Origin: an uncultured Planctomycetia bacterium
Lineage (GTDB): Bacteria; Omnitrophota; Gorgyraeia; S143-82
Direction: 5' to 3'
Length of the DNA stretch: 64,000 nucleotides
NCBI GenBank assembly: GCA_964469495.1
Contig: CAYXYY010000011.1
Location: forward strand, 30,845 to 94,844
Shown here piece by piece: positions 1,924-57,850 of the stretch. The number at the start of each line of letters is the position of its first letter. The first letter of the stretch is position 1. The position numbers and the translations under genes were made by a program. Below the pieces are notes generated by a model, which was not told where the DNA came from, searched no databases, and saw only the letters and a program-made list of their open reading frames with translations.

Positions 1924-4740
1924 ATGGTTTTCAGAAAGGGCGTTTTTATGGGATCTTGTGTGAAAAACGTATTTATACATTCGTTTTGTGTTTTTTTACT
2001 CTTATGTGTTGTTCTGTTTTGCTGTTCGAACGCCTATGCATACGATAGTTTTGATAATCTCAAATACGATATAAAATTTTCTTTTTCTAATACAGGGCAC
2101 TTCATAACGGCAAAAGAAACGATTTCCTTTAATTGTGAAGCGCCTTTGTCTGAGATTCATTTACATTTTTACCCGGCGCATAAATGGTCTGATGAGGAAA
2201 AAGATGCATATGAAAAGTACGGCGGGTATTTTAATATAGATACTCCGTTTCCTGACGGTTTTGACGAAAACAAGGCAGGCGTCAATTTTGTATCTGTAAA
2301 TGGCCGCAGGGCGCAATTTTCCTTAAAAGGCAAGGATCGCACGCTGCTGGTCATTTATCCGGATGCGCCTTTGTCAGGAAGTATTGTGCTGGATATAGAT
2401 TTTGAATTTTATGTGCCCAAGCGAATAGGCCGATTTGGAAGAAACAACGGTGTCTATAGTATTTACAGGGCATATCCGATTTTAGACGTAATGAAAGACG
2501 GAAAGTGGCTTGATTATCCCGATTACTTATTGTATCAGCCTTATGTAAGCCAATCGGCATTGTACGACGTGGCGATTGAGCTCCCAGAGTCCTTTGTGCT
2601 GGCGGCTAGCGGACAGGCCGTTGCATCTGAAAAAAGGCGCGGCAGTGTTTTATACAAGATATCTTCCGATAAACCCTTAAGGGATTTTTCTTTCTTTTTC
2701 AGCAAAAAATACCGTGTCTATACCAAGAACGTTGATGGTATAGATATTAAGGTCTATTATCTGCCTTCTGCCCCTTTTGATGCCGTGATGAATATATCAA
2801 AGTTTATAGAGGATGAGCTGATGTTTTATAAGGGGTATGGGTTTGAGTATCCGTATGGGCAAATATCCGTTGTGCCTGTTTATTTAGGTTATGGAGGCAA
2901 TGAGACCTCAAACGTCGTTATGCTTGACCGCAGGGTCCTTTTTATACCGAATGTTGCCAAGAGATATCAGGAGTTTTTGGCAGTGCATGAATTTGGCCAT
3001 CAGTTTTGGTTTAATCAGGTGGGTTCCGACGAATATGCAGAGCCGTTTGTTGATGAGGCCGTAAACTCCTATTTTGTGCAAAAATATCTTGAAGAGAAGT
3101 ATGGACACAACTGCAATGTCCTGACTTGGCCATGGCCATTGGATTTGTTTATGCCGAATTTTACCTTTCTCAACGGGACAACAGTAAGGTATAGATATCT
3201 TGCAAGGCGGGGAATAGATCTTCCTGTTTTGATGCAGGCCAATAAGATGAATGAACCCGATATGATTTTTGCGTTTGCATATGGAAAAGGTGAGGCCTTA
3301 TTCGAGACGATGGAACACAGCATAGGCAAAAAGGCGACGATGTCTATCTTTAAAGACTACTTTAAAAGATATAGATTTGCAATAGCAGATGTTAACGCAT
3401 TAGAAGATGTTTTCTCCCGGCATTTGGATAACATGAAACTTGATGCCAGTGATAGATTTGCCTCAGTGTTGAGGGATAAAGGAATTGATTTTTATGCCAA
3501 GAAGACAAGAAACGGATTTCGAATATTGGAAAGATCAGAGACACTTGAACGGGTAAAGGTGCGATATCGTTTAAACAGGCAGTGGCTTATGACAGATGTG
3601 AAAAGCGGAGATGTCTTGCATGCCGATAAGATTGTTATAGACCCGGATGATGAAGTCTTAGAAACGGACGAGGCAAACAATGTGTATCCTGTTTATGATA
3701 ATGTCGATTTTAAGCTAAAACCGTTGAACCTGCCTTTTTATTCAATGGATATCTTTAATACACAAAAGAGATTGACTGCTGACGTGGGATTTAATCTTTC
3801 AGAATTTGGCCCCGGGGTGCGGTTTAATTTGCACTATCCTTTTGTATATGATCTTGCATTAGGAGGGTATATAGATACTGCGCAGGATGAGAGGTCTATA
3901 ACCTCATCTTTTAGATTGCACGGGATTGACGAGACTTTGTGGGAAATGGCCTTGGAATATGCCTATAGGGATGATTATTCAGAGTATGACGAAAACAGTG
4001 AGGAGATAAGATTGTCTTTTTCTCTGCCTTTGCAGGCTCCCAGTTTTAGGCTCGGAAAAACAGACGATTTCTTTGAGTTATATATGGCGAAAAACAGAGA
4101 ATGGTTTTCCCAGATAGATGGTATGTTCGATAAGGTGGTTTCAAGTGTTTATTACGATGTCCAAGATCTGTTCTATGTTGGGTTTGGTATCCAGCGGTCT
4201 GTGGCAGAGGACTTTCTTATAAGGGCGTACTATGAATCAGGATTTGATAAACTAGGGGCGGATTTTTCATTCAATAGACTGTATTGCGAATCCATATACG
4301 GGTTTAAGTATAGGGATCTTGATTTCTCTGCGCGCGTTGGTTTGGGCCTATCTGATGCGGATAACAAACCCATGTTTTTTGCGGGAGGCAGCAATGGATT
4401 GCGGGCATATCGCAGAAAGGCAATAAGGGGAGGGAATCTGGCCTTGTTTTCAGTGCAGGCCTTCAAAAATATTTATGAAGCGGATGATAGTCTTGCGAGG
4501 CAAAACGGATATGTATCTGTTTCACACATAAAAACAGGCGTGTTTTTTGACGTTGGCAAGGTGTGGCAGGATTCCATGTCAGAAAACAGGTGGAAGAAGG
4601 ATATTGGTATCGGATTTAGGGTAGGCCTTAATTTCGGCGCATTGGCATCAAGCGCGGATTTGCGTCTGGATTTTGCCAATTCCATTGGTGAAGATGACGA
4701 TGAGTCCCGTATTGTCATTGGTTTTGGAAGCCGTTTTTAG
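1924..4740 (+). CDS. Secreted M1-like (gluzincin) zinc metallopeptidase domain fused to a C-terminal outer-membrane beta-barrel, giving a type-V/autotransporter-like architecture
   Basis: An N-terminal signal peptide is present. HEFGHQ...(19 aa)...E has HEXXH-X18/19-E spacing like M1 aminopeptidases. The C-terminal ~350 aa are rich in alternating aromatic/hydrophobic residues and end ...RIVIGFGSRF. A terminal Phe is the OMP beta-barrel signature. Confidence 0.6.
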   Translation: MVFRKGVFMGSCVKNVFIHSFCVFLLLCVVLFCCSNAYAYDSFDNLKYDIKFSFSNTGHFITAKETISFNCEAPLSEIHLHFYPAHKWSDEEKDAYEKYGGYFNIDTPFPDGFDENKAGVNFVSVNGRRAQFSLKGKDRTLLVIYPDAPLSGSIVLDIDFEFYVPKRIGRFGRNNGVYSIYRAYPILDVMKDGKWLDYPDYLLYQPYVSQSALYDVAIELPESFVLAASGQAVASEKRRGSVLYKISSDKPLRDFSFFFSKKYRVYTKNVDGIDIKVYYLPSAPFDAVMNISKFIEDELMFYKGYGFEYPYGQISVVPVYLGYGGNETSNVVMLDRRVLFIPNVAKRYQEFLAVHEFGHQFWFNQVGSDEYAEPFVDEAVNSYFVQKYLEEKYGHNCNVLTWPWPLDLFMPNFTFLNGTTVRYRYLARRGIDLPVLMQANKMNEPDMIFAFAYGKGEALFETMEHSIGKKATMSIFKDYFKRYRFAIADVNALEDVFSRHLDNMKLDASDRFASVLRDKGIDFYAKKTRNGFRILERSETLERVKVRYRLNRQWLMTDVKSGDVLHADKIVIDPDDEVLETDEANNVYPVYDNVDFKLKPLNLPFYSMDIFNTQKRLTADVGFNLSEFGPGVRFNLHYPFVYDLALGGYIDTAQDERSITSSFRLHGIDETLWEMALEYAYRDDYSEYDENSEEIRLSFSLPLQAPSFRLGKTDDFFELYMAKNREWFSQIDGMFDKVVSSVYYDVQDLFYVGFGIQRSVAEDFLIRAYYESGFDKLGADFSFNRLYCESIYGFKYRDLDFSARVGLGLSDADNKPMFFAGGSNGLRAYRRKAIRGGNLALFSVQAFKNIYEADDSLARQNGYVSVSHIKTGVFFDVGKVWQDSMSENRWKKDIGIGFRVGLNFGALASSADLRLDFANSIGEDDDESRIVIGFGSRF

Positions 4741-15494: not shown

Positions 15495-15524
15495 TTTTGA
15501 CGTGGATAAAAAAGGGGGGTGTCA

Positions 15525-16496
15525 ATGTTACGTAAGTCTTTTGTATTGTTTGTGGTTGTGTCTCTGTTTGTAGCAGGTGGTTGTAATCTGTTTTCCAAAC
15601 CGAATGACTATTCTGTTCAAGAACCCGTTAATGATGTTGAGGCAGTGGAGCCTAGTGAGCCTCAGGTTGAAGTGAGCAATATACCAGAGACGGATATTAT
15701 TGCCAAGGTGGGAAATTTCGTTATCACCAAGCAGGATTTAGCGGATTCGATAGACGTGTTAGAACAGCAATTGGGACAGAAGATAGAAAGGGATAAGATT
15801 ACGCGTCAGCAAAAGGAGATGTTGGCAGATCTGCTCGTTAGACAAAAATTGTTATATCTTGCGGCTAAAAACGAGGGGTTGGCATCTGACCCTAAAGTGA
15901 AAAGGGCGTTGCAGTTGGCAAAGGAACAGGTTTTGTCCCAAGCGCTTTTAAGTAGATATGCAGAGAGGATAAATCCTACGGATGCCGAGTTGCAGAGTTT
16001 TTATGAAGACGGGACATATCAGGGATATAAAGTAAAGGACTATTTTACTGAACAGGAAAAGAGGAGAATACAGGAAATCGCCCTTGATAGTGAGGCGGAG
16101 GCAAAACAGGTATTGGTGGATATTATGCAGGGCAATATAACATTCCGCTCAGCTGCCAGAAAGTATTCTATATTAAAATCCGCTGATAAAGGTGGAGATA
16201 TTGGTTATAAATCTGCGCAAGAGCTTTATCAGGATGGAAAACCAGATAAATACGTAAATATGGCGTTTATGATGTTGGATAAGGGGGATGTCAGCACAGT
16301 ATTTAAGGCGGATGGGAAATATTATATAATCAAAGTGGCGGGTGTGCGGCCAAAGCAGGAAAAACCGTTTTCCGAGGTCAATGACCAAGTGGAGTCATTG
16401 TATAAGATGAAAAAGCTTCAGGAGATGCAGAATGCAGCTATTGAGAGTGTAAAGAATTCAGGGATTGAAGTAAAAAAATCATATGAGAATCTATAA
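15525..16496 (+). CDS. Lipoprotein parvulin-type peptidyl-prolyl cis-trans isomerase (PrsA/SurA-like)
   Basis: It has a signal peptide with a lipobox-like ...FVAGGC. The C-terminal segment ...SAARKYSILKSADKGGDIGYKS...MAFMMLDKGDVSTVFKADGKYYIIKV matches the PpiC/rotamase domain. Confidence 0.65.
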   Translation: MLRKSFVLFVVVSLFVAGGCNLFSKPNDYSVQEPVNDVEAVEPSEPQVEVSNIPETDIIAKVGNFVITKQDLADSIDVLEQQLGQKIERDKITRQQKEMLADLLVRQKLLYLAAKNEGLASDPKVKRALQLAKEQVLSQALLSRYAERINPTDAELQSFYEDGTYQGYKVKDYFTEQEKRRIQEIALDSEAEAKQVLVDIMQGNITFRSAARKYSILKSADKGGDIGYKSAQELYQDGKPDKYVNMAFMMLDKGDVSTVFKADGKYYIIKVAGVRPKQEKPFSEVNDQVESLYKMKKLQEMQNAAIESVKNSGIEVKKSYENL

Positions 16497-16516: not shown

Positions 16517-17695
16517 ATGTTTAAAGATTGGCCATTACTTATCGCCATTGCATTGGCGTTCATCGCAACCTTTTCTATTTATCAGTATATGAAGACACAA
16601 CAGGAGAAAATGCAGTACCAAATAAAAGCGGCTATAGAAAAAGAAAGACAAAAATTAGAGAATGAATATAAAAAAAATATGGCCCATGTGAAAGGGCAGA
16701 GAGGTAGAGGCATAAATGTGGTTGTCGCTAAAAAAGATATTCCAGCCGGAGATGTAATTACGTCTGAAATGGTAGAATTAAGGAAAGTTCCATCATCAGT
16801 CAAAGCGCCTATGAGCGCAGGGACGTTAGATGCGGTTATAGGAAAGATGGCAAAACAGGATATCTTGGTAGGGGAACAGGTAATGCTTAACAGGGTTATT
16901 TCTCTAAAGGCTCAAAAGGGCGCTATTATCAATCCCGGGACTAGGCTTGTCACTATACAGGTGGAACAATTGGACTTGTTTAGGTTTTTAAGGCCGGGAG
17001 ACCACGTTGATATTGCCTTGATGTTCCAATTGCCGCAGTCGCAAGCGGTAACAACAGGCCTTTTCCCAGATGTCGAAATAAAGGCCATTAATGGCAGAAT
17101 CTCGTATTCTTCGCTGTTTCGAACATCTGCGCCTGCGCAGGACAAATCCAATAGAACAATTAAAAAGAGGGTCGATAATAATGCTAAAAAAACAGGGATT
17201 AGTATAGATCCTAACAAAGGGACATTGTCTTTCTCTCTGCCGCCTAAAGAGGCAGCGATTCTCTTGATGGCATCAAAACTGGGCAAGATAGAGATATATC
17301 CAAGATCTAGTCTTGATCCGGACAAGACAAAGATACCGCCGATTACTGCGGATGCTGTTTTGCAGTTCGCCCTGCCAAATATAATGGCAAAGGCCAAGAA
17401 TAATGCTGCTGTGGCGGGCCAAAAAAAGGAACAAAAGGTTGAAAAAGAACCGGAGCATGAAGCGCCAATAACCACAAGAAAGGTCAAAATAAGAAAAGGG
17501 TCTGCGGTTCAGTGGGTAGAGATTGGCGAAGAAGGTATTATCCAGGATGAGGATAAACCAAAAAAAGAGATTTCCGGGAATGTTGATAAGCAAGGGAGAG
17601 ATGGGAAGGATGCAAAGGATATAGATGAACAGAAAACGGTTGTTGATAATAGTGAGGAGGACTTACAGAAAGAAGGTGTTGTGAATGAGGTATAA
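16517..17695 (+). CDS. cpaB: Flp/Tad pilus assembly protein CpaB (RcpC), with an N-terminal TM and a SAF domain
   Basis: An N-terminal TM helix is followed by VVVAKKDIPAGDVITSEMVELRKVP...VIGKMAKQDILVGEQVM, a SAF/CpaB pattern. It sits directly upstream of a CpaC-type secretin. Confidence 0.65.
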   Translation: MFKDWPLLIAIALAFIATFSIYQYMKTQQEKMQYQIKAAIEKERQKLENEYKKNMAHVKGQRGRGINVVVAKKDIPAGDVITSEMVELRKVPSSVKAPMSAGTLDAVIGKMAKQDILVGEQVMLNRVISLKAQKGAIINPGTRLVTIQVEQLDLFRFLRPGDHVDIALMFQLPQSQAVTTGLFPDVEIKAINGRISYSSLFRTSAPAQDKSNRTIKKRVDNNAKKTGISIDPNKGTLSFSLPPKEAAILLMASKLGKIEIYPRSSLDPDKTKIPPITADAVLQFALPNIMAKAKNNAAVAGQKKEQKVEKEPEHEAPITTRKVKIRKGSAVQWVEIGEEGIIQDEDKPKKEISGNVDKQGRDGKDAKDIDEQKTVVDNSEEDLQKEGVVNEV

Positions 17696-19244
17696 TCTGT
17701 TATTTTCCGCTTTTATATTTTTAGTGTGTTTTTCTTCTCTTTCTTCTGATGCAGAGACAAATGTATATTTAAAGGCAGGCGATACAAAGGTTTTGCCGTG
17801 TCCTTCATGTCAAGAGGTCTCTATAGATAATCCTAATATCGCAGATGTTACGACTGATGGGGATTCTGTTATTGTTAGCGCTGTCAGCCCGGGTATTACT
17901 GCATTGGAATACGTCTCTGGGAGCGGGAAAAAGGATTATAAAGTAGTTGTTTGGGAAGATAACGTTCCATTTGTGGCAAATCAGGTGAGGTCTTTGCTTA
18001 AGGTTCTAAATTTATCGAATAACATTTCCGTAGGCGAAGATAAGCTGGCAGGCAAGGTTTATCTCTTGGGAGAGATATCAGGTGAAGAAAAACAAAAGGC
18101 TTTGGATAATGTGCTTCAGGCCTGTCCTTCGCCTGTAATAGTCAATCTGGTAAAAGTTAAAGACCAGCATGAGGTTATTGAAGTAAAGGTCAATGTTGCA
18201 GAGATAAGCAAGTCCGATCTGGATCAATTGGGGATAGCTTGGCCATCTTCTATATCTCTTATAGCAAGTGAAGATGTTCCCTCTGAATCAGGCGAAGAGT
18301 CCAATGGAAAGTCATTGGGCGATGCCCTTAAATTCAATAAATGGACGCGCAATGATGCTACGTGGATGCTGTCGATGTTAGAACAACAAAGCAAGGGCAA
18401 GATTTTGGCCAGTCCATCGATATTGGCAACCAGCGGCAAAGAAGCCTCTATTTTGGTTGGAGGAGAGATCCCGATTTTGATGTATGACGATGATGAACCC
18501 AAAGTCGAGTTCAGGCCATACGGCATTATTCTAAACATATTGCCGTCTATTATAGAAGGGAATAAGATAGATGTTAATTTGGAATGCGAGGTCAGTGAAA
18601 TAGACTGGACCAATTCTGTCAATGTTACATTGGCCGGAGACGACGATGACCAAAGGTTTAATGTGCCGGCCTTTACAAAGCGGAACGCCAAAACAGAGGT
18701 GATTTTAAACAACGGAGAAAGTATTATAATGGGGGGATTGTTAAAGAACACTGATACAAAAATAACATCAGGAGTGCCTGGTTTGAGTAAACTCCCTGTT
18801 TTGGGCGCTTTATTTTCCTCTAAAGATTTTCAGAAGGGTAAGACAGAGCTTATTATTACACTAACGCCCAAGATCAAGAAAGGCAATGATTCTACTCCAG
18901 CAGAAAATCTAAATCAATTGGGAGGCCTGCAAAATATAACTCTGAATAGTGATAAATCGCCGCTGCAAAGATATAAAGAGATGCTATTGAATACGATTAC
19001 CAAATCCTTTTATTACCCGGATTACGTGAAAGACAAGAAGTTGTCGGGTACTGTTTTATTAACATTACATATTGCAAGATCGGGCAGGGTGTTGGGTGTT
19101 AGAGTCAAATCGTCTTCAGGCAGCAAGGTTCTTGACAGGCTTGCAATTATGTTAATTCGAGATATTGGTTTATTTCCTCCATTTCCCGGGGATCTAAACC
19201 TAGAGGATTTGTGGATAGATATTCCTATTATATATCAGGCATGA
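17685..19244 (+). CDS. cpaC: CpaC/RcpA-type secretin with an extra C-terminal TonB_C-like domain
   Basis: It has a signal peptide, a secretin N-domain, and the secretin core (ILASPSILATSGKEASILVGGEIP...). The last ~90 aa (YPDYVKDKKLSGTVLLTLHIARSGRVLGVRVKSSSGSKVLDRLAIMLIRDIGLFPPFP) match the TonB C-terminal domain pattern. Confidence 0.75.
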   Translation: MRYNLLFSAFIFLVCFSSLSSDAETNVYLKAGDTKVLPCPSCQEVSIDNPNIADVTTDGDSVIVSAVSPGITALEYVSGSGKKDYKVVVWEDNVPFVANQVRSLLKVLNLSNNISVGEDKLAGKVYLLGEISGEEKQKALDNVLQACPSPVIVNLVKVKDQHEVIEVKVNVAEISKSDLDQLGIAWPSSISLIASEDVPSESGEESNGKSLGDALKFNKWTRNDATWMLSMLEQQSKGKILASPSILATSGKEASILVGGEIPILMYDDDEPKVEFRPYGIILNILPSIIEGNKIDVNLECEVSEIDWTNSVNVTLAGDDDDQRFNVPAFTKRNAKTEVILNNGESIIMGGLLKNTDTKITSGVPGLSKLPVLGALFSSKDFQKGKTELIITLTPKIKKGNDSTPAENLNQLGGLQNITLNSDKSPLQRYKEMLLNTITKSFYYPDYVKDKKLSGTVLLTLHIARSGRVLGVRVKSSSGSKVLDRLAIMLIRDIGLFPPFPGDLNLEDLWIDIPIIYQA

Positions 19245-19263: not shown

Positions 19264-21474
19264 ATGGGCAGGGCAATAGTTTTTTTTAGCCCCAAAGGCG
19301 GTGTTGGAAATACCTTTCTTGCCACAAATCTTGCTATTGCTTTGCAGCAAAGGGCATATAAGGTCTTGTTGTTGGATGCGGCTTTCCCAATTGCCGGCGA
19401 TGTGGCAAGGTTGTTAAGCATATTCCCAAAACAGAGTATTCTGGATATCTTCTTCTCCGGTTATACTATCCCTTATGACAATCCGCAAATTATGTCCGAG
19501 TTCCTTGCAGATTATGTGACAAAGCATGATGTTGGTGTGGATGTCTTGCCTGCAATAATCAGCCCCGGCGAGATGAAGCATATCAGTGATATCAATCCCA
19601 GTTTATTTATGAGGAGCATTAGTGATATTTACGATTTTGTTATTGTTGATGCAGGAAAGGTCTTTTCATCTTTTTTAGTAAAGTTGTTGGACAATGCGAA
19701 CCTGGTGTTGAGTGTGGTTGTCCCGGATATACTCTCCGTTTATCAGACGAAGGCGGCATTCGGCACTTTTCAGGATCTGTTTTTCCCAAAGGAGATGTTT
19801 AAACTTATATTGAACAGGGCGGAAAGCAAAGGCGGTGTTGGCATAGCAGAAGTGAAAACCGTTTTGCCGCTGGACATTATAGCTAAAATTCCGAGTGAAG
19901 GCAGGCCGGTAGGACATTCTGTTAATTTTGGTGTGCCTGTTCTGTTGGAAGAACCGAATTCCCGCGTAAGCAGCGCAATCAGGGCATTGGCAGAGAATCT
20001 GCTGGAGCCCCATATTTACATAGATAAACTCCCTATTGATGAGTTGAAAAACAGAAGAAAGGAATCCAAACATGATGTATTGGTGTCCTTTTGGGAGGAT
20101 TACGGATTAGGCGTAGAGAAAAAACAAGTGGAGAGGATAGACGAACTTGTTCTATTAAAAAAACGGGTACATAGGAAGTTGATTGATAGGGTGGAGACAA
20201 AGAAATTTGACTTTTTTAATATGACAAGAGACGAGAGGAATAAGATAAGGCAGGATACAGAGAGGATTATAGGAGAGCTATTAAGCGAAGAGACAGGGGC
20301 ATTGGTTGATGATTATGAAAAGAGAAAAATTTTAGTCAAAGAAATAGCTGACGAGGCTCTTGGGCTCGGGCCGTTAGAGGACCTGTTAAAGGACCCGGAT
20401 ATCACGGATATTATGGTTAACAACAAGGAACAGATTTTTGTTGAAAAATTTGGAAAGCTGCAGTTAACTGACAAGAAATTTATCTCTAACGAACATGTTA
20501 TTCAAACTATAGAACGTATTATCTCTCCTCTTGGCAGGAGAATAGACGAATCAGTGCCTATGGTAGATGCAAGGCTTCCGGACGGCAGCAGGGTGAATGC
20601 CATAATACCTCCATTGGCGTTGAACGGCCCAATGCTTACGATTAGAAAGTTTGGAAGGGAGCAATTTATTGCAGATGATTTGGTAAAATTCGGGAGTATC
20701 ACACAAGATATAGCCGAATTTTTAAAGGCGTGTATTGTAAGCAGGAAAAATATCATAGTATCAGGAGGCACCGGTTCTGGTAAGACCACAGTATTGAATG
20801 CCTTTTCGCAATATATCCCGTCAAAGGAAAGGATTGTGACGATAGAGGATGCCGCTGAACTTCGTTTAAATCAAGAACATTGGATTAGGCTGGAATCAAG
20901 GCCTCCAAACATAGAAGGCAAGGGGCAGATAACTATAAGGGATTTGTTTAGGAACACGCTTCGTATGCGGCCTGACAGGATAATTATCGGTGAGTGCCGC
21001 GGACTAGAGGCATTGGATATGCTTCAGGCAATGAACACAGGCCATGACGGGTCATTGACAACTATCCACGCAAATTCAACGCAAGATGTTATCTCTAGGC
21101 TTGATTCTATGATCTTAATGAGCGGCATAGAACTGCCTGTAAGAACGATTCGTGAGATGGTTGCTTCGGCCATAGACATCATTGTGCATACGGCAAGGTT
21201 AAGCGATGGTTCAAGAAAGGTGATACAGATTACAGAGGTAATTGGCATGTCGGATGACATGATTAACCTAAATATGAAAGATATATTTGTCTTTGTTCAA
21301 AAAGGTGTGGATGAAAAGGGCAAGATCTTGGGAGAATTTTCTGCCACAGGATATATCCCGTCTTTTTATGAAGAATTGGGCCGTATGGGAATAAAGTTGA
21401 GTGAGGGGATGTTTGAGCCAAGGCAAGTATATTATGATATTGTTAAACAAGACAAAAAGCAAGAAACTCACTGA
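19264..21474 (+). CDS. cpaF: Fusion of a CpaE/TadZ-like ParA/MinD-family domain (degenerate Walker A, KGGVGNT) to a CpaF/TadA VirB11-family secretion ATPase
   Basis: The N-terminal ~250 aa have a deviant Walker A (SPKGGVGNTFLATNLA) where N replaces the usual K. The C-terminal half has Walker A GGTGSGKTT, Asp/His boxes (DRIIIGECRG, GHDGSLTTIHANS) and the CpaF signature. Confidence 0.8.
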   Translation: MGRAIVFFSPKGGVGNTFLATNLAIALQQRAYKVLLLDAAFPIAGDVARLLSIFPKQSILDIFFSGYTIPYDNPQIMSEFLADYVTKHDVGVDVLPAIISPGEMKHISDINPSLFMRSISDIYDFVIVDAGKVFSSFLVKLLDNANLVLSVVVPDILSVYQTKAAFGTFQDLFFPKEMFKLILNRAESKGGVGIAEVKTVLPLDIIAKIPSEGRPVGHSVNFGVPVLLEEPNSRVSSAIRALAENLLEPHIYIDKLPIDELKNRRKESKHDVLVSFWEDYGLGVEKKQVERIDELVLLKKRVHRKLIDRVETKKFDFFNMTRDERNKIRQDTERIIGELLSEETGALVDDYEKRKILVKEIADEALGLGPLEDLLKDPDITDIMVNNKEQIFVEKFGKLQLTDKKFISNEHVIQTIERIISPLGRRIDESVPMVDARLPDGSRVNAIIPPLALNGPMLTIRKFGREQFIADDLVKFGSITQDIAEFLKACIVSRKNIIVSGGTGSGKTTVLNAFSQYIPSKERIVTIEDAAELRLNQEHWIRLESRPPNIEGKGQITIRDLFRNTLRMRPDRIIIGECRGLEALDMLQAMNTGHDGSLTTIHANSTQDVISRLDSMILMSGIELPVRTIREMVASAIDIIVHTARLSDGSRKVIQITEVIGMSDDMINLNMKDIFVFVQKGVDEKGKILGEFSATGYIPSFYEELGRMGIKLSEGMFEPRQVYYDIVKQDKKQETH

Positions 21475-21478
21475 GAAT

Positions 21479-21772
21479 ATGTCTGTTGCCAGGACCTTCT
21501 TTCAAAAGGCAAAAGGCCTGTTAGGTTCTCTTTCTATTGCTGATGATTATGCCCTGCTTTTTGAAGCGTGCTCTTCAGTCCATATGATAGGAATGGTCTT
21601 TGCCATAGATGTGGTGTTTTTGGACAAGGGCAAAAGGGTATTAAAGGTGGTAAAGGCGCTTAACCCTTTTAGCTTTGCATTTGGCCCGAAGAGGACATTC
21701 TATACGATAGAGGCAAAGGCCGATACATTGTCTAATCAGATAGAACCGGGAGACGTATTAGAGTGGGAATAA
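21479..21772 (+). CDS. DUF192 family protein (COG1430)
   Basis: The segment ...RTFFQKAKGLLGS...HMIGMVFAIDVVFLDKG...FYTIEAKADTL...GDVLEW follows the DUF192 pattern. An ATG at 21479 is in frame. Confidence 0.6.
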   Translation: MSVARTFFQKAKGLLGSLSIADDYALLFEACSSVHMIGMVFAIDVVFLDKGKRVLKVVKALNPFSFAFGPKRTFYTIEAKADTLSNQIEPGDVLEWE

Positions 21773-23310
21773 AGCCGGCAAAGACGTTTTTGTTTTTCTG
21801 TGTTATGTTTCAATGCGCCATGGCATATGCCGGGTGGACGCAGTTGGGGCAAAGGGTATGCTCCGGCAGCATCTCGGCCATGTGCGCTTGGCATGGCGGC
21901 CTTTTGATATCATGTGATGATTATCTATATGAAAACACGGATGATATCTGGGCAAGGCGCGCGCGTATCAGGGGGCGGTTGTATGAGCCTTCACAGATTG
22001 TGCAGAGTAAATGGGGCGTGTTTGTTGCGACCAAACAGGGCATGTTTTGGGCGCAAAACCCTTCAGAAAGATTGACGAGGATCTTTAAGCCTGAGAAAAA
22101 GGCGGTTTACTCACTGGCCATTGGCAATAAGGGCTTGTTTTGCGGCACATCCCAACATGTTTTTCTTATCAGCCCTGGTGGGGAGGTCATCTCGGAATTG
22201 TTGGCCAGCAACAGCCCTGTTTTATCTATGTTGTTTGATGAAAAAACAGCTAATCTTATCTGCATAACAGAGCAGGGCATTGTGATCTATGATGTGGATA
22301 AAAGGCGGATTATTATGCATAGGGATCTGGGCAGGAATAATGAAGATGCGCGTTGGGACCCATCTGCTCATATCATAACAATAACCCGGACGGGCAGGGT
22401 TGTTTTTGCGTATAGAAACGATTTGTATGCCATAGACATAGAAAACAACGCGCTTTCTATGGTTGTCAGCCTGCCGTCGAGCGTAATGGCTATTGCGTCT
22501 GTTAAAGGCAAGGTTATAGCGGCCTGTGAAGGAAGCGTTTTTAAGATAGATGCGCTTCTTGAGCAGGCAGATAAATATCTCGTTGGGTTAGATGCAAAGA
22601 GATTTGTTGATATGGTAAAGGAAGAAAACAGGGTCTTCTTGGCTAGTGAAGATGCTGTATTTGTGTTAGATGCTGGTGAGCTGTCTTTTAAGGCGATTGA
22701 CAAGGATATAGATTTACTATACAGATACCTGTCTTTTGAGCCGGATATTATTTTACTTCAAGAAAAGGCTATGGAATATGCAGACGTGATGCCGGATAAA
22801 ATTAGGGAATGGAGGGCACTGCTTAAAAAACGCGCCCTTTTCCCGCAGGTATCGTTTGACATTGGCGGGGATAACAATAAAAGCGTTTCGGATACAGGGT
22901 CAGTGTGTTGCAGCGGTAGTTATGCGGTTGGGCCTGATGATAAGACCGTTAGCAAGAATCTGGACTGGCAGGTGAGTTTTGAATGGGACCTTGCTGACCT
23001 TATATGGGATCCCCAACACACCTCGATCGATGCCCGCTCGAAACTTACGGCTGAGCTCAGAGATGATATCTTGGACGATTTAAATCAGACGTATTATGAA
23101 CGCAGGCGCAGGCAACTAGAACTTTTATCCAATCCCCCGAGGGAATTGGATAAGGCCATTACTATTCTGTCTAAGATAGAGAGGCTGCGCGCTGACATAG
23201 ATGCGATGACAGGCGGATTTTTGAGCAGGTTTTTAAAACAGAACGGACATTACAATTGGGAAAGAGAGTTTATAAAGGAGGTATTGAGTGAAAAAAGAGT
23301 GGGAAAATAG
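21763..23310 (+). CDS. Hypothetical secreted protein (signal peptide; likely beta-propeller-like N-terminal region and a coiled-coil C-terminal region)
   Basis: It is a long ORF with an N-terminal hydrophobic signal. I recognise no motif. Confidence 0.45.
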   Translation: MGIKPAKTFLFFCVMFQCAMAYAGWTQLGQRVCSGSISAMCAWHGGLLISCDDYLYENTDDIWARRARIRGRLYEPSQIVQSKWGVFVATKQGMFWAQNPSERLTRIFKPEKKAVYSLAIGNKGLFCGTSQHVFLISPGGEVISELLASNSPVLSMLFDEKTANLICITEQGIVIYDVDKRRIIMHRDLGRNNEDARWDPSAHIITITRTGRVVFAYRNDLYAIDIENNALSMVVSLPSSVMAIASVKGKVIAACEGSVFKIDALLEQADKYLVGLDAKRFVDMVKEENRVFLASEDAVFVLDAGELSFKAIDKDIDLLYRYLSFEPDIILLQEKAMEYADVMPDKIREWRALLKKRALFPQVSFDIGGDNNKSVSDTGSVCCSGSYAVGPDDKTVSKNLDWQVSFEWDLADLIWDPQHTSIDARSKLTAELRDDILDDLNQTYYERRRRQLELLSNPPRELDKAITILSKIERLRADIDAMTGGFLSRFLKQNGHYNWEREFIKEVLSEKRVGK

Positions 23311-23982: not shown

Positions 23983-26900
23983 TTAATTAATGGTCTTATG
24001 GCTGTTGAAGAAGGACTCGTCGCTTGTCGTATACCATGTCTCAAAGGATGTCAATGTAAGGTCTCCGGGGGGATAATTGTTTGAATAGTCTTGGGCGATC
24101 GTTGTATAGTTTTGATAGCCGTTGTTTATGCTTCCGACCAGGTCATGATTTGAACCAAAACCACCGCCACTGCTTCCTCTCCAGTAGTCGGACCAATGCT
24201 TTGAGGTAGTCCCCTTTACATTGGGAAACATCCCTTTTTTGGTGATAGATAATCCGTTAGCTGGTTGTGAGCCATCGTTATTGAGGCGCCATGCTATGTT
24301 CTCAACTGTGATGCCTGTTGGATATCCGTCAGGCGTTATCAAAGATGCGTATATATGCATATCCCTGTCGTTATCATCAATCATAGGCATTGAACGTTTC
24401 TTTGGCCCGTCTATTGGGCTATGAGCCTTGGCAAAGCTGTCTCTGACATAATTTATAAGGCTATCCGGGTTGGTTGTATACCCAGGATATTGTTGTGGGA
24501 AATCATTAACCACATCAAAGTCATCTGAAAGTTCACAGTATTCCTTATCTACACGCTCTTTATAAGTATCTTCTTGCTCATCATAGTAATAATCATAATA
24601 TGCCTTTACAGCTGCGTCTATGACCTGAAGTTTTTCCTGTTTTACCTCCTCGCTATCAGAGGCCTTTGGCCATATATCGTCAGCGTATTTGACGTAGTCT
24701 TCAATGCCGGAATTTTTTGCATATTCGCTCAGGTATCTAAGCATTTGCGCTTTTTGCCAGCCTTCATAAAAATAAGGGTCCGCATATGCAGGCGCGTTGG
24801 CATAGGGATTTCTATCATCATAGGCAGGCAGGTTTGCATGCTTGCCCAAGAGGTATATCTCGCTATCGCTGATGATAGATGTGGGCTGCCAGTCCTGTTC
24901 ATCCTCGGCCTTGTCCTTTTGATAGTTTATATCGCCTTGAATAAACACAGGGTTTGGCGAGACGAATGTTATGCCGCCCTCTCTGGGAATAGTTTCCGCG
25001 TTTTTGATCTTCAGCGCCCGGGAAGAGTGATAATCGTGATCTTTGCTAGTAGGTTGTTCCTTGTAATTGACCCATATAATGCCGTTTGTTTGATTTATAA
25101 GGTTGATATTATTGGCAAGTTCAGCCACATCTATTGTAATGGTATCGGCATGGTATACAGTCGGCAAGGAATTGGGCCCAGCAGATTTCACGCCCGTTAT
25201 AAAGGATTCCTGCGCTATCCATGAGGGCGGTTGTATAAACATGGGGTTACCTTCATCATAAACCTTTGTGCCTTTTACGTAAACCGTCAGGTCCCCGTCG
25301 TCTTCATATCCTATCCAGATACCTCCTTCCTTTGCCTTGGAGCTAAACGTATTTTCTATCTCTACCATAGACATGTCTTTTGCGCCGGTATTCCTTTCCC
25401 TGATTTTTCCATAGAGGTTCATAGAGTTGTTATAGATATTGTTGCTAGCCAAGCTATAATTGCCCTCCAACCAGTTTCTAAACGCTTCTGCCTGGTTGGA
25501 ATAAGACGTGTTAAGGAAATTGACGTCTTTATTGTCATCCCAATGCACAGAGCCGTAATGTTGGTCTGCCGGGTCATCTCCCCTGTAGTATCCGTACTGA
25601 GCGTATTTGCGCGGGTCGTTGTAATAGTCATGCGGCATATTGTTAGGAGCTACCTTCCCCGTCCAATAGTTTGCATCACCCCAAAACCTGCGTTCGTATT
25701 CAGGGTTAAATGTCACTGTTTCTGTATGATTGGCGTCTATAGAAAATGTGTAGTTTATATCCTCCTTTACCTTTAATGTAGCGGTCTCAGCTGATTCATC
25801 CCAAGAATATTTAATAGTTATTTCAGGGGTGGGAGGTATGCCAAGGCTGGCATCGCCTGCGGCTGTGTCTATCCCGTCAAATACCTGAGCGAATATCTGA
25901 GGCTTGCCGTCAACGATTTTTACGTCATTGTTAGGGTCTTCATCGCTATTTAATGCCTCGTTTACTTTGGGGTTAGCTGTGATGTGCCATTTATCATGAA
26001 CATCTTGGTAATAAATCCGTATGTATTTTACGGGTTTTTCTTCTTGATGCGAGTCGTTCCACCAAATATCCTTTACCCCTTCATGCGAGTAGTCTCTATA
26101 GATAAACTTGGAGTAATTTGCATCCGATCCATTTTCGTTTTTAAGCCTTACCGGCGGGGCGACAGTGATATCATCGTTGATATCCTCTGTGCCATTTGTG
26201 AATACAAACCTTGCTGTATCGTATGGATCAGGATAGTTTTGGGCAAATATCCCATATGGACTTAGTCGATCATTGTACTCTCCATACCACTCAGACGATT
26301 TATCAGAAGGATACACCCCCCCAGGGTATGGAAAGGGCTCTGTTTTTGTGCTGATAGTCAAGAAGGCATACCCGTCCAATTGTTTATTGTTATAATCATA
26401 AAGATCGCACACATCTAGATAAAATGGTTCGTATTTGCCGACAGTCCTGACTTTAAAAACGCCTTCTGAGTTTGTGCTTACTAGTTTTGGGTCCTTTATT
26501 TTTGCTGGTCCATCAAATATGATGTCGCCATTGACGTATATCTTGCCAAACCCCTGGCAGTCATATGTATAATTGCTGTTACCAGGATACCAGTTGCCGT
26601 TTATGAACTTAAAATAGTTATACAGAGAGTCTGCGTTTATGCTGACTCTGACTACCTTTGTCTTGCCGTTTAGCTCTGCCTTTGACATAATCCACCTGAT
26701 AGAGCTATCATCGTCTGTCTTGTATATGCGGACCTTTATTTGGTCATTGCCAAGCGGCCGGTAAAAACCATTAGTGTCTATATCAGCGCCTGTAATAGAA
26801 GGATTTTTGGCCTTATCCGGATTACTATTTGGCATGTGGATGAATTGTCCATTTGGATTTACTCTATGCGTAAACCAGTTAAACCCGTGCATTTTTAGCT

Positions 26901-27096
26901 CAACAAAGGCGTAGTGTATGCCTCTCTCTGCCAAGTATGTGAGCTGTTGATCCTCTAAGATGTTTTCAGACATCTTTAGGTTGACTTGTTGGGTCTGTAT
27001 GATTGATACGATGCCGGCAATGACAAGCCCGTTGAGGATAAAAGACCATAATATCAGGGCCATTCCCTTGTCTTTTTTGAACCTGTTTCTCCTCAT
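23983..27096 (-). CDS. Giant (1037 aa) PilX_N/GspK-like minor (pseudo)pilin-anchored surface protein, a putative pilus-tip adhesin
   Basis: The N-terminus RRNRFKKDKG|MALILWSFILNGLVIAGIVSII is a GspK/PilX-type prepilin-like hydrophobic segment lacking Glu5. It is followed by the QQLTYLAERGIHYA PilX_N pattern. The remainder is a large N/Y/D/G-rich extracellular domain. Confidence 0.6.
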   Translation of the reverse strand: MRRNRFKKDKGMALILWSFILNGLVIAGIVSIIQTQQVNLKMSENILEDQQLTYLAERGIHYAFVELKMHGFNWFTHRVNPNGQFIHMPNSNPDKAKNPSITGADIDTNGFYRPLGNDQIKVRIYKTDDDSSIRWIMSKAELNGKTKVVRVSINADSLYNYFKFINGNWYPGNSNYTYDCQGFGKIYVNGDIIFDGPAKIKDPKLVSTNSEGVFKVRTVGKYEPFYLDVCDLYDYNNKQLDGYAFLTISTKTEPFPYPGGVYPSDKSSEWYGEYNDRLSPYGIFAQNYPDPYDTARFVFTNGTEDINDDITVAPPVRLKNENGSDANYSKFIYRDYSHEGVKDIWWNDSHQEEKPVKYIRIYYQDVHDKWHITANPKVNEALNSDEDPNNDVKIVDGKPQIFAQVFDGIDTAAGDASLGIPPTPEITIKYSWDESAETATLKVKEDINYTFSIDANHTETVTFNPEYERRFWGDANYWTGKVAPNNMPHDYYNDPRKYAQYGYYRGDDPADQHYGSVHWDDNKDVNFLNTSYSNQAEAFRNWLEGNYSLASNNIYNNSMNLYGKIRERNTGAKDMSMVEIENTFSSKAKEGGIWIGYEDDGDLTVYVKGTKVYDEGNPMFIQPPSWIAQESFITGVKSAGPNSLPTVYHADTITIDVAELANNINLINQTNGIIWVNYKEQPTSKDHDYHSSRALKIKNAETIPREGGITFVSPNPVFIQGDINYQKDKAEDEQDWQPTSIISDSEIYLLGKHANLPAYDDRNPYANAPAYADPYFYEGWQKAQMLRYLSEYAKNSGIEDYVKYADDIWPKASDSEEVKQEKLQVIDAAVKAYYDYYYDEQEDTYKERVDKEYCELSDDFDVVNDFPQQYPGYTTNPDSLINYVRDSFAKAHSPIDGPKKRSMPMIDDNDRDMHIYASLITPDGYPTGITVENIAWRLNNDGSQPANGLSITKKGMFPNVKGTTSKHWSDYWRGSSGGGFGSNHDLVGSINNGYQNYTTIAQDYSNNYPPGDLTLTSFETWYTTSDESFFNSHKTIN

Positions 27097-47306: not shown

Positions 47307-48562
47307 AAAAGTTTATTATAAACGGCCCCGCAGAACTTTCCGGGACTATTACTATAAGCGGATCAAAGAATGCGGCCCTGCCGATATTGGCTGCCTGTTT
47401 GCTTACGGAAGAGGAGGTTGTCCTGCGTAATGTGCCCAAGTTAAAGGATATAGAAACGATGGTCAAGCTGCTACGGTGTCTTGGGGCGCAGGTGATTGAG
47501 GAGTATCCGATAATTAGAGTGCCGGCAGGCAGGAAGAAAAAATACACGGCCCCGTATAATATAGTCAAGACGATGCGCGGGTCTTTTTGTGTATTAGGCC
47601 CTTTGCTTGCGCGTTTGAAAAAGGCAAAGGTATCTTTGCCCGGAGGCTGCGTTATAGGCGTGCGTCCGGTTGATTTGCACATAAAGGGCATAAGCGCCTT
47701 GGGCGCGGATATAAAACTGGAGAATGGTTATGTATACGCCAAGGCAAAGGATCTGCGAGGAACGGACGTGTATCTGGGCGGGATGTTTGGTTCTTCTGTA
47801 TTGGCTACGGCCAATGTAATGATGTGCGCTGTGCTTGCAAAAGGCAGGACTATTATTGAGAACGCGGCTTGCGAACCGGAGATAGTTGATCTGTCCAATA
47901 TGTTGACGTCTATGGGGGCAAAGATATCGGGCGCAGGTTCTCCATGGATAGAGATAGAAGGCGTTGAAAGATTAGGGGGTGTGGATTACACGATTATCCC
48001 GGATAGGATAGAGGCCGGAACCTATATAATGGCCGGCGCGATAACCAAGTCTCAAATAAGGCTAAAAGGGATTGAGCTTCAACACCTTGGCGCGGTTTTG
48101 GATGTGTTAAAGCGTTGCGGAATTGAAGTGAAAGGTAGGAAAAACGGCCAGGTAAATGTCTCTGAAAACATAAAGGCGCAGAACATAGCTACGTTGCCTT
48201 ATCCCGGATTTCCAACGGATTTGCAGGCGCAGTTTGTTGCGCTTATGTCTGTTGCAGACGGAACGAGCGTTATAACGGAACGCATATATCCGGATAGGTT
48301 TATGCACGTCCCCGAGTTAAATAGAATGGGCGCGAACATAAAGAGGGAAGGGCCATACTGTGTTGTTCAAGGTGTAAGAGAATTAATCGGCGCTCCTGTT
48401 ATGGCATCGGATCTCAGGGCATCGGCTGCGTTGGTTATCGCGGGCTTGGCTGCAAAAGGCAGGACAGAGGTTCATAGGATTTATCACCTTGAGCGCGGAT
48501 ATGAAAATATGATAGAAAAATTACAAAAGGTTGGAGCGGACATAAAGGAGGCGTTTGACTGA
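47303..48562 (+). CDS. murA: UDP-N-acetylglucosamine 1-carboxyvinyltransferase
   Basis: The protein begins MKKFIINGPAELSGTITISGSKNAALPILAACLL..., is 419 aa, and has the EPSP-synthase fold signature. Confidence 0.95.
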   Translation: MKKFIINGPAELSGTITISGSKNAALPILAACLLTEEEVVLRNVPKLKDIETMVKLLRCLGAQVIEEYPIIRVPAGRKKKYTAPYNIVKTMRGSFCVLGPLLARLKKAKVSLPGGCVIGVRPVDLHIKGISALGADIKLENGYVYAKAKDLRGTDVYLGGMFGSSVLATANVMMCAVLAKGRTIIENAACEPEIVDLSNMLTSMGAKISGAGSPWIEIEGVERLGGVDYTIIPDRIEAGTYIMAGAITKSQIRLKGIELQHLGAVLDVLKRCGIEVKGRKNGQVNVSENIKAQNIATLPYPGFPTDLQAQFVALMSVADGTSVITERIYPDRFMHVPELNRMGANIKREGPYCVVQGVRELIGAPVMASDLRASAALVIAGLAAKGRTEVHRIYHLERGYENMIEKLQKVGADIKEAFD

Positions 48563-49515
48563 TGGTTAACAACAATACAATGGATTTATTTGGAACACAG
48601 GTTGATTTCATCCAAACGGATATCACTGGTTTAAAAATAGAGGCAATAGTAAATCCTGCAAATACAAAGTTAATAATGGGAGGAGGGGTTGCAGGCGCAA
48701 TAAAGCGAAAAGGCGGGAAAGAAATAGAAAATGAGGCAATGCATTTTGCCCCGATTGAATTAGGGCAATCCATTTTGACGCAAGCGGGAAAATTGCCTGC
48801 TAATAGTGTGATTCATACAGCGACGATGCACATGGATTTTAAGACAGATTACGATATTATTCGTAAGTGCGCTCGGTCCGTGTTTGACCTGTGTTATGAG
48901 AAAGGCATAAAAGAAGTTGCCATTCCTGTTTTAGGGGCCGGCGTAGGCGGATTAGATATTGCCATGTCGTCTAAGATAACAGCGCAGGAATTGTTCAAGG
49001 CGGTTAGGGAAAATAGGGCACCTGAAAAAGCGGTTTTCGTGTTTTATGATGATGTGGCATTATCAAAGGGATTGTCTGCGCGCAATTATCTATTGCACTT
49101 GAAAAATAAAACGATGCAAGGGCCTTTTATAACAGTAGATGCAGTTGTCTTTGATAAGTTGAATAATCCGGAGAAAGTGGTGTTGATAAAGAGAAAAAAT
49201 CCGCCTTTTGGCTGGGCCCTTCCCGGCGGGTTTTTGGATTATGGTGAAACAGTTGAAGATGCGGTTTGCAGGGAGTTAAAGGAAGAGACAGGACTAGATT
49301 ATAATTACGTCAGGCAATTGGGTGTCTATTCAGATCCTAACAGAGATGAGCGGTTCCACACGATTACAGTGGCGTTTTACGGGATATCAGAAGGAAATCC
49401 CAAGGCAGATGATGATGCCCAAGATGCGGGATGGTTTTCTTTGAAGGATTTGCCTGAAAAGATAGCGTTTGACCACAAGCAGATAATCATAGATGCATTA
49501 GAAAGGATGGAATAG
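48562..49515 (+). CDS. Macro domain (ADP-ribose binding / deacylase) fused to a NUDIX hydrolase (ADP-ribose pyrophosphatase-like)
   Basis: The N-terminal ~180 aa (IVNPANTKLIMGGGVAGAIKRKGG...IPVLGAGVGG) is a macro domain. The C-terminus has the Nudix box GGFLDYGETVEDAVCRELKEETGL. Confidence 0.75.
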   Translation: MVNNNTMDLFGTQVDFIQTDITGLKIEAIVNPANTKLIMGGGVAGAIKRKGGKEIENEAMHFAPIELGQSILTQAGKLPANSVIHTATMHMDFKTDYDIIRKCARSVFDLCYEKGIKEVAIPVLGAGVGGLDIAMSSKITAQELFKAVRENRAPEKAVFVFYDDVALSKGLSARNYLLHLKNKTMQGPFITVDAVVFDKLNNPEKVVLIKRKNPPFGWALPGGFLDYGETVEDAVCRELKEETGLDYNYVRQLGVYSDPNRDERFHTITVAFYGISEGNPKADDDAQDAGWFSLKDLPEKIAFDHKQIIIDALERME

Positions 49516-57464: not shown

Positions 57465-57850
57465 AATTTTTCTCTTTGATAAAAATCTAAAAAATTCTCT
57501 AATGCGTTTTTTCTCTCCTTGATTCTTTCGACCCATGCTTTAAGCAGTCTTCTGCCATGAGGAGTGATTTGATAGACCCTTTTTCTTCTTGAACCCTTTG
57601 TTTTCCATGAAGATTTTACAAGGAATTCTTTTTCCATCTTTCTCAATATCCGATACACTGATCCTATATCAATGTTTTTTTTATGAAAGCCAAGGAGTTT
57701 TAATTTATCGATCAATTCATAACCGTGAGACGGCTTCTTTGACAAAAACAAGAGTAGACCGGGCTGAATAAATCTTGAAACTCTACGCAGGGAAAAATTG
57801 CAGCCCTTTTCTTTTTCATCCAATTTTTCCCCTAATTCTTTTGATTTCAT
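57461..57850 (-). CDS. PadR-family transcriptional regulator, the first gene of the efflux operon
   Basis: ...PGLLLFLSKKPSHGYELIDKL...GSVYRILRKMEKEFLV...RKRVYQITPHGRRLL is the PadR wHTH signature. An SD (AGGAGA) precedes the internal ATG at 57850, which is preferred over the 57877 start. Confidence 0.75.
   Translation of the reverse strand: MKSKELGEKLDEKEKGCNFSLRRVSRFIQPGLLLFLSKKPSHGYELIDKLKLLGFHKKNIDIGSVYRILRKMEKEFLVKSSWKTKGSRRKRVYQITPHGRRLLKAWVERIKERKNALENFLDFYQREKL

Follow-up and report, generated by a model that had tools for sequence, protein, structure and literature searches.

What is a TonB-type domain doing at the end of an outer-membrane secretin? The question is raised by a stretch of 64,000 nucleotides (here called the window) from an uncultured Planctomycetia bacterium placed by GTDB in the Omnitrophota (assembly GCA_964469495.1, contig CAYXYY010000011.1, forward-strand positions 30,845 to 94,844). 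A sequence-only reading of this DNA had proposed that a CpaC/RcpA-type secretin encoded there ends in about 90 residues of TonB_C-like sequence, and that such a domain could anchor or gate the channel or couple it to the cell envelope. We found that the 519-residue protein is a Tad secretin of the CpaC/RcpA type and that its C-terminal domain is of TonB_C type. This identification was borne out by the agreement of sequence profiles, predicted fold and gene neighbourhood. The position given for the tail, 18972..19244, covers residues 430-519 and the stop codon; the peptide quoted from it is present in the translation. The same 519-residue protein, with the same Pfam matches, is also called by independent gene callers (ENA/NCBI/JGI).

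The TonB_C family (PF03544) matched the full-length secretin at residues 442-517 with 41.4 bits (cutoff 24.6, E=2e-10), and the match spanned profile positions 3-77 of 79. The related profiles TonB_2 (PF13103) and TIGR01352 (tonB_Cterm) scored 26.8 bits (cutoff 22) and 48.5 bits (cutoff 27.1), respectively. When the 90 residues 430-519 were searched alone they were assigned to TonB_C with 46.0 bits (E=7e-12) and to TIGR01352 with 53.1 bits (E=3e-14). The failure of profile assignment to TonB_C/TolA_C that the sequence-only reading had named as its refutation thus did not occur. The folded domain is predicted to be slightly longer than the 90 residues first given, extending from about residue 424 or 426 to 519 with an extra N-terminal helix.

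Modelling of the C-terminus, which the sequence-only reading had suggested as a check, gave a confident fold of the TonB C-terminal domain (CTD) type. In an AlphaFold2 (AF2) model of the full-length protein, computed from an alignment of 38 family members, the N-terminal domains and secretin strands were confident, residues 426-519 formed a compact domain with a predicted local distance difference test (pLDDT) score of ~90-95, and the predicted template modelling score (pTM) was 0.41. A model of the tail alone, built with 26 homologous tails, reached a pLDDT of 93.4 and a pTM of 0.80. Its predicted topology is helix, short helix, beta-hairpin, helix and C-terminal strand (H-H-E-E-H-E), with the YP motif at Y444-P445.

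A Foldseek search of the tail against the PDB returned only TonB, HasB, FusB and TolA CTDs among the top 25 matches, and the best was the Helicobacter pylori TonB-CTD 6sly (template modelling score 0.79, root-mean-square deviation 2.0 Å over 91 columns). The family tail sequence profile matched the H. pylori TonB-CTD end to end (E=8e-12), with lower matches to Neisseria, Pseudomonas and E. coli TonB, HasB and TonB2 and a marginal match to TolA; this places the domain with TonB and not with TolA. With the tail as a single query sequence, the PDB search gave only a marginal match (E=0.02). The fold, the YP motif and the C-terminal edge strand are shared with the known TonB CTDs, of which those of H. 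pylori (6sly/5lw8) are the closest solved ones and which include HasB, FusB and the TonBs of E. coli, P. aeruginosa and Neisseria, with TolA domain III more distant.

The rest of the protein is a secretin. PF00263 (Secretin) matched residues 232-397 with 145.5 bits (cutoff 27.5), and Foldseek of the full-length model matched the secretins GspD, PilQ, InvG, BfpB and RcpA. The match to the pil_N family PF13629 is marginal in the window secretin (Table 1) and reaches 39-53 bits in relatives. The N-domain that follows contains, in the AF2 model, a helix at 94-107, a strand region at 114-132, a helix at 134-146 and a strand at 152-159, and gives a weak YscD-like BON-like Pfam match. No N0/STN domain was found in the window secretin by the Pfam scan. 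The N-terminus, MRYNLLFSAFIFLVCFSSLSSDAE, contains no His, no SHLS motif, no TonB-type transmembrane helix and no lipobox, and leads into the secretin domains; residues 1-23 form a predicted signal peptide. A lipobox-like motif was present in only 3 of the 80 family secretins. The order of pil_N beta-sandwich, N-domain and secretin core is shared with RcpA of P. aeruginosa (PDB 8odn) and CpaC of Caulobacter crescentus. The neighbours are shared as well, with cpaB/rcpC upstream, cpaF downstream and, in related loci, Flp pilins and tadB/C.

The fusion recurs widely. A homolog search recovered the identical protein, one relative with 63% identity and 36 further clusters at ~30% identity, with lengths of 500-564 residues. 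All 38 protein clusters share PF13629, PF00263 and PF03544, and ordinary CpaC proteins without TonB_C ranked below them. In a scan of one genome per GTDB species, 218 genomes encoded relatives, and we surveyed the best 80 loci; the survey covers relatives of this CpaC lineage, with taxonomic labels taken from the records. The alignment ran through residue 517-519 in 79 of the 80 loci, the other being cut by a contig end. Survey of the homologs for the extension, also suggested in the sequence-only reading, thus found it in all 79 complete secretins called from the related species-representative loci, each with exactly one TonB_C, and no second TonB_C gene lay within +/-10 kb of the secretin in these 79 loci. 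The architecture had been called non-standard. It is standard for Omnitrophota-type Tad secretins (79/79), and the part of that claim which stands is that no published description of it was found.

The labels of the best 80 loci were Omnitrophota or Omnitrophica in 64 cases, ENA 'uncultured Planctomycetales/Planctomycetia' placeholders in 15 and 'bacterium' in one, all with the same synteny. Among public records of family members (PIQ90530.1, MEK7308257.1, MCP3685707.1 and RLG57178.1), some lie in bins labelled Nitrospirota, Planctomycetales or Hydrothermarchaeota archaeon; since their synteny is identical and Omnitrophota-type, these labels are probably binning or label errors. Database names of family members are also inconsistent and include 'hypothetical protein', 'TonB family protein' and '(pilus assembly protein) CpaC'.

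Selection on the tail was assessed from mean pairwise identities among 28 non-redundant family members. These were 0.48 for pil_N, 0.47 for the N-domain, 0.55 for the secretin core and 0.49 for TonB_C, against 0.12 for the linker that precedes it. Residues Y430, P445, G455, G467, S478 and D484 of the tail are invariant, and Y444, L461, P498, F500, W510, P514 and Y517 nearly so. The identity of the tail and its invariant residues, set against the divergent linker, point to purifying selection on the tail comparable to that on the rest of the secretin, with the linker apparently constrained only to exist.

These data bear on whether the fusion is real at all. A frameshift or misassembly could have joined the secretin to a separate tonB-like gene, or the tail could be a functionless relic in decay; the sequence comes from a metagenome assembly, and the database labels of such proteins are, as noted, inconsistent. 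However, the reading frame is continuous and the same domain order occurs here and in 79 independent genomes, the identical 519-residue protein is present on three public contigs, and the tail carries the purifying-selection signature described above. We consider an artefact or relic highly improbable, and recurrence together with conservation effectively excludes it.

The linker and the number of TonB_C domains vary. After the conserved TLTP motif that closes the secretin core, the fusion family usually has 121-134 residues, whereas non-fused CpaC homologs mostly have 30-65. The linker measures ~25 residues in the window and 21-57 in A1, is typically ~25-35 residues long, and ranges from 10 to 354 residues across representatives. 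A search of 1.84 billion cluster representatives with the tail profile gave 57,512 TonB_C-type matches at E<=1e-3. The top of this list was mostly occupied by unrelated multi-TonB_C proteins, whose scores are summed over domains and which were not taken as relatives of the secretin tail. Among the best 150 matches, 58 carried a CpaC-type secretin region, 45 of them with one TonB_C and 13 with two in tandem, and Pfam bore out the variant architectures in ten examples. The long linkers, of 130-354 residues in a minority of relatives, are either low-complexity and rich in E/K/S/A/P or highly charged and helical-looking; the K/E/R-rich helical spacers of some variants resemble TolA domain II.

Three variants illustrate this range: P0126 (L082:307-2238) has two TonB_C domains, P0226 (L083:8001-10625) has the 354-residue linker, and P0152 (L086:1851-5126) is a divergent two-domain protein. 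All three come from loci of the family's usual type, with CpaB, CpaE::CpaF, DUF192 and small genes of pilin size. Beyond its second TonB_C, P0152 has another ~310 residues, with a TPR-like segment at the end. In a crude neighbour-joining tree of the secretin core alone (217 columns), 69 of 73 fused sequences formed one pure clade, and the four two-domain variants fell outside it in 22-25 of 25 resamplings. This rough tree would fit both a single old fusion that has a divergent side branch and two separate fusions.

The features of the secretin and its locus are collected in Table 1. Neighbour counts below refer to 80 sources, namely the window and the 79 related loci.

Table 1. Coordinates in the window of the Tad secretin gene, the domains of its product and the adjoining genes.
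Feature	Position	Strand	Basis and remarks
PpiC/SurA-like peptidyl-prolyl isomerase with lipoprotein-type signal	15519..16496	+	Pfam Rotamase_2/Rotamase/SurA_N
cpaB/rcpC (SAF + RcpC domains)	16517..17695	+	Pfam; alignment-complex subunit
Tad secretin gene (CpaC/RcpA-type, C-terminal TonB_C)	17685..19244	+	519 residues + stop; list of open reading frames (ORFs), Pfam/NCBIfam
Signal-peptide-like hydrophobic segment, residues 1-23	17685..17753	+	Translation; AF2 helix at residues 3-19
T2SS-T3SS_pil_N beta-sandwich, residues 26-89	17760..17951	+	PF13629 23.8 bits (cutoff 23); pLDDT ~90
Periplasmic ring-building-type alpha/beta N-domain, residues 94-160	17964..18164	+	AF2 model, pLDDT 83-88
Secretin core, residues 164-398, ending in conserved ..ELIITLTP	18174..18878	+	PF00263 at 232-397
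Flexible linker, residues 399-423	18879..18953	+	pLDDT <50 at 401-421; identity 0.12
TonB-type C-terminal domain, residues 424-519	18954..19241	+	Pfam TonB_C 442-517 = window 19008..19235
Fused CpaE/TadZ-like (ParA/MinD) + CpaF/TadA (T2SSE ATPase) gene, 736 residues	19264..21474	+	Pfam CbiA/AAA_31/ParA; T2SSE 214 bits
DUF192 gene	21401..21772	+	PF02643 56.3 bits

The order of genes around the secretin, which is itself present in all 80 sources, is conserved. The cpaB gene, whose stop is overlapped by the secretin start by 11 nt, lies directly upstream of the secretin in 75 of the 80 sources and is present in 78. The cpaE::cpaF fusion directly downstream is kept in 72 sources, and the variant loci L082, L083 and L086 have it too. 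The DUF192 gene, which shares ~74 nt with the end of cpaE::cpaF, occurs in 50 sources and also in L081 and L082; because it is kept downstream of cpaF so often, its product is probably an uncharacterised Tad component. The in-situ study of the Caulobacter Tad machine makes no mention of DUF192. The window CpaB, at 392 residues, is longer than the family median of ~299, the excess being a highly charged, low-complexity C-terminal extension (residues ~290-392).

In 70 of the 80 sources the PpiC-like gene opens the cluster at position -2, ahead of cpaB, and 65 of its 71 members carry a lipobox-like motif. The lipoprotein might conceivably serve as a pilotin at the outer membrane; in many members the residue at +2 from the lipid-bearing Cys is Asp or Glu, which in enterobacteria is a signal for retention in the inner membrane. 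The PpiC-like lipoprotein is a candidate for a dedicated secretin chaperone acting in place of a pilotin. Its N-terminal segment ETDIIAKVGNFVITK was considered as a Ton box and rejected, as it matches the usual first-strand motif of SurA_N.

Related loci typically continue with a 591-residue protein that has no clear domains, several pilins of Flp type (motif KGQSTAEYAIV), TadE/F/G-like genes and then two T2SSF (TadB/C) genes. A motif search found no Flp pilins or tadB/C in the window, where the pilin block of most related loci is missing. Two ORFs without significant Pfam match, at 21763..23310 (+, 515 residues) and 23983..27096 (-, 1036 residues), occupy the place of the 591-residue protein and the pilin block. 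In ~30 loci (L005, L010, L016, L021, L083 and others) a divergent trio of FIST, histidine kinase and response-regulator-GGDEF genes lies upstream of the PpiC-like gene, which suggests control of the pilus by cyclic di-GMP; the trio is absent from the window locus. That the organism is diderm follows from other products encoded in the window, namely LptE, LolC/E, a protein of the Omp85 family and an OEP domain.

Several known accessories did not appear in these surveys. No small TPR lipoprotein (TadD), OmpA-like lipoprotein (CpaD) or RcpB was found among the recurrent gene clusters within +/-10 kb or the annotated ORFs of the window. The same clusters of the 79 loci and the annotated ORFs of the 64-kb window contained no exbB/exbD/tolQ/tolR-like genes, and Pfam gave no match to LysM, AMIN or OmpA_C in the secretin or its conserved neighbours.

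What the domain does at this position is best approached from the secretins whose tails are known. In solved secretins the chain leaves the barrel at its periplasmic outer face, and the C-terminal S-domain binds its pilotin there. In the solved Tad secretin RcpA, which has 13-14 subunits, the S-domain is a short random coil whose last four residues dock into TadD, and TadD rings the barrel (PMC10499894). The Omnitrophota protein differs in that the corresponding segment is a ~25-residue linker followed by a folded domain of 96 residues, and its loci contain no tadD gene. With a folded tail and no cluster of small TPR lipoproteins in the loci, it falls outside the pilotin-dependent type of tail represented by RcpA-TadD.

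We infer that the TonB_C tail is a periplasmic docking module, tethered in cis, that anchors or assembles the secretin, and we give this role an even chance of being correct. The inference draws on the presence of a conserved TonB_C on a floppy tether at the S-domain position, in loci without TadD- or CpaD-type accessories; the periplasmic location follows from secretin topology and is likewise predicted. In such a protein the short unstructured S-domain tail would have been replaced by a flexible linker and a folded TonB_C domain. In the assembled ring of 13-14 subunits the TonB_C modules would then encircle the barrel on its outside, lying in the periplasm immediately beneath the outer membrane. 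Through these modules the secretin would be attached to some other part of the envelope. That could be a partner protein, held by beta-strand addition in the manner of TonB, or peptidoglycan, to which TonB CTDs have been reported to bind. Docking of this kind would help to assemble the pore, position it and anchor it mechanically against pilus forces, and the cis module would stand in for trans-acting accessories such as TadD, CpaD or TsaP.

Known systems offer partial parallels for such a module. The essential Caulobacter lipoprotein CpaD, whose fold is predicted to be OmpA-like and peptidoglycan-binding, forms a belt around CpaC, and the TadD ortholog is dispensable there (PMC13170226). The CpaD belt and the TadD ring are both accessories outside the barrel and under the outer membrane, needed for assembly or anchoring, and TonB_C is tethered at an equivalent position. 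However, CpaD and TadD are separate lipoproteins of OmpA-like or TPR fold, while here a TonB_C fold is covalently fused and has no lipid anchor, and any functional equivalence is presumed. TsaP is described, in a citation within PMC8811193, as anchoring PilQ to peptidoglycan, and TsaP (LysM) and AMIN with PilQ (6ve2) illustrate a like concept, a peptidoglycan-anchoring module on a type IV pilus secretin. Their folds are LysM and AMIN, and AMIN is N-terminal, whereas the module here is a C-terminal TonB_C and a candidate peptidoglycan binder only.

The variability described above also bears on the roles that had been suggested first. Variation in linker length and copy number suits a module that reaches out and binds, and speaks against a gate or a rigid structural element. 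A channel gate is unlikely: the module hangs from the C-terminus on linkers of 10-354 residues, whereas the gates of secretins are formed by hairpins within the secretin domain. Anchoring or envelope coupling, the other roles named in the sequence-only reading, fits the anatomy, in which a flexible linker without sequence conservation takes the S-domain position on the outside of the barrel.

Several points weigh against the docking module. The one mode of binding that structures have established for TonB/TolA CTDs is beta-strand addition to a protein (PMC12204202), TonB_C has no defined peptidoglycan-binding motif, and no candidate Ton-box-like partner motif was identified. The absence of TadD and CpaD covers only +/-10 kb around the secretin. 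In the monomer model the placement of TonB_C relative to the barrel is uninformative, given the linker pLDDT below 50 and the pTM of 0.41. Finally, the conserved PpiC-like lipoprotein could itself be the assembly factor, and TonB_C would then have a different job.

A rival role would need no external ligand. Neighbouring TonB_C domains might pair or strand-swap with each other, or with the periplasmic domains of the secretin, to form a peripheral collar that staples the ring and allows multimerisation independent of a pilotin. Isolated TonB CTD fragments crystallise as intertwined dimers, 1u07 is listed with two chains among the PDB matches, tandem two-domain variants exist, and the loci contain no pilotin gene. 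The local concentration of domains around a 13-14-mer (stoichiometry from PMC10499894) would also be high. However, linkers of up to 130-354 residues fit a defined collar poorly, odd ring symmetries such as C13 are ill-suited to pairwise dimers, and the AF2 monomer models show a closed and confident monomeric fold. We regard self-association as distinctly unlikely.

The TonB-like nature of the domain raises the matter of energy. TonB/TolA transducers have an N-terminal transmembrane helix with the SHLS motor-binding motif (PMC12204202). The domain here sits on an outer-membrane protein instead of behind such an inner-membrane helix, the typical member has no Pro-rich or helical domain II, and there are no ExbBD/TolQR neighbours. 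The protein was accordingly rejected as an energy transducer, as it has no N-terminal transmembrane helix with SHLS, a ~25-residue linker in place of a typical domain II, and no motor genes nearby. Without inner-membrane anchor, domain II or motor neighbours, the secretin cannot by itself transduce energy from the proton motive force (PMF).

The tail might nevertheless receive a strand from a partner across the periplasm. In this form of trans-envelope coupling, the outer-membrane-tethered TonB_C would take a Ton-box-like strand on an inner-membrane component, such as CpaB/RcpC, another alignment protein or a PMF-driven complex of ExbBD/TolQR/Poc type, and so align, localise or open the secretin. 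TonB/TolA CTDs bind their targets by beta-strand addition (PMC12204202), strand-complementation contacts are predicted among CpaB, CpaI and CpaC in the Caulobacter Tad machine (PMC13170226), and the very long, charged, TolA-domain-II-like linkers of some variants could span the periplasm. However, the typical linker is only ~25-35 residues, no partner motif was identified, and the window and the recurrent clusters lack exbB/exbD/tolQ/tolR-like genes. In other Tad systems it is the N-terminal domains of the secretin that link to CpaB/RcpC (PMC13170226), while the secretin here has no N0/STN domain. On balance we consider coupling of this kind unlikely.

A link between TonB-type proteins and type-IV-filament machines is known from other bacteria. 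Genetically, the function of type IV pili depends on TonB paralogs, through a mechanism that remains unexplained (PMC5285504, PMC8811193), a point that speaks for coupling: P. aeruginosa PocAB-TonB3 is needed for type IV pili, with a contact between TonB3 and PilQ's N0 domain proposed (PMC5285504), and Acinetobacter baumannii needs TonB2 for its type IV pili (PMC8811193). Both are canonical TonB paralogs of the inner membrane that have a motor and act in trans on type IVa pili, whereas the present case is a C-domain only, in cis, on a Tad secretin. A corresponding 'inverted TonB', in which the outer-membrane-anchored TonB_C would grip a Ton-box-like strand on an energy-driven inner-membrane partner (a Poc/ExbBD/TolQR-type motor or the Tad platform) and thereby couple the pore mechanically to the inner membrane and position or open it, strikes us as a long shot.

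Other proteins of note are encoded elsewhere in the window. An ORF of 1508 residues at 51863..56392 (-) contains a full AcrB/RND transporter (ACR_tran, 693 bits, residues 4-1024) followed by a TolC-like OEP domain (153 bits, from residue 1078), and a gene for an HlyD-type membrane-fusion protein at 56379..57536 (-) adjoins it upstream. The fusion of an inner-membrane pump to its own outer-membrane factor is unusual. An ORF of 938 residues at 1924..4740 (+) has Peptidase_M1 (residues 302-500) and then an Omp85-superfamily beta-barrel (residues 679-938), and looks like a protease-barrel fusion. A Macro+NUDIX fusion protein is encoded at 48562..49515 (+), and a PilJ-type methyl-accepting chemotaxis protein, of the kind linked to type IV pilus signalling, at 60374..62002 (+).

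No published description of a secretin-TonB_C fusion was found in the literature on Omnitrophota, Tad pili, secretins or TonB. Seymour et al. (2023) treated the Tad systems of Omnitrophota, with an RcpA phylogeny, and made no mention of TonB (PMC10066038). The fusion is likewise not mentioned in the structural papers on Tad and secretins (PMC10499894, PMC13170226) or in a 2025 survey of TonB/TolA evolution (PMC12204202), nor in the Myxococcus Kil paper, where TonB does not come up. A 2026 preprint on Omnitrophota noted 'TonB C-terminal domain' genes near pilus genes, which were not recognised as secretins. The fusion thus combines a known machine part with a phylum-wide accessory module in an unusual topology, and is apparently undescribed. 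For annotation, the consequence is that a single family is at present carried under the names 'TonB family protein', 'hypothetical protein' and 'CpaC'.

Omnitrophota are ultra-small and probably host-dependent bacteria, and their Tad pili are thought to mediate attachment or predation. Secretins in general need accessory factors for targeting, assembly and anchoring, and these differ by system (TadD, CpaD, PilF, TsaP, AMIN, GspAB). A TonB-type domain hard-wired onto the Tad secretin would be a new solution to this problem, adopted across a phylum. A TonB_C on the outer-membrane side of the periplasm is also the reverse of the canonical topology and broadens the uses to which this domain is put. 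The fusion is independent evidence, encoded in genomes, that TonB-type C-domains and type-IV-filament secretins work together, and it may bear on the need of type IV pili for TonB3 and TonB2. If the 'inverted TonB' were true, the requirement of proteobacterial type IV pili for TonB paralogs (PocAB-TonB3, TonB2) could be read from this cis-fusion as from a Rosetta stone.

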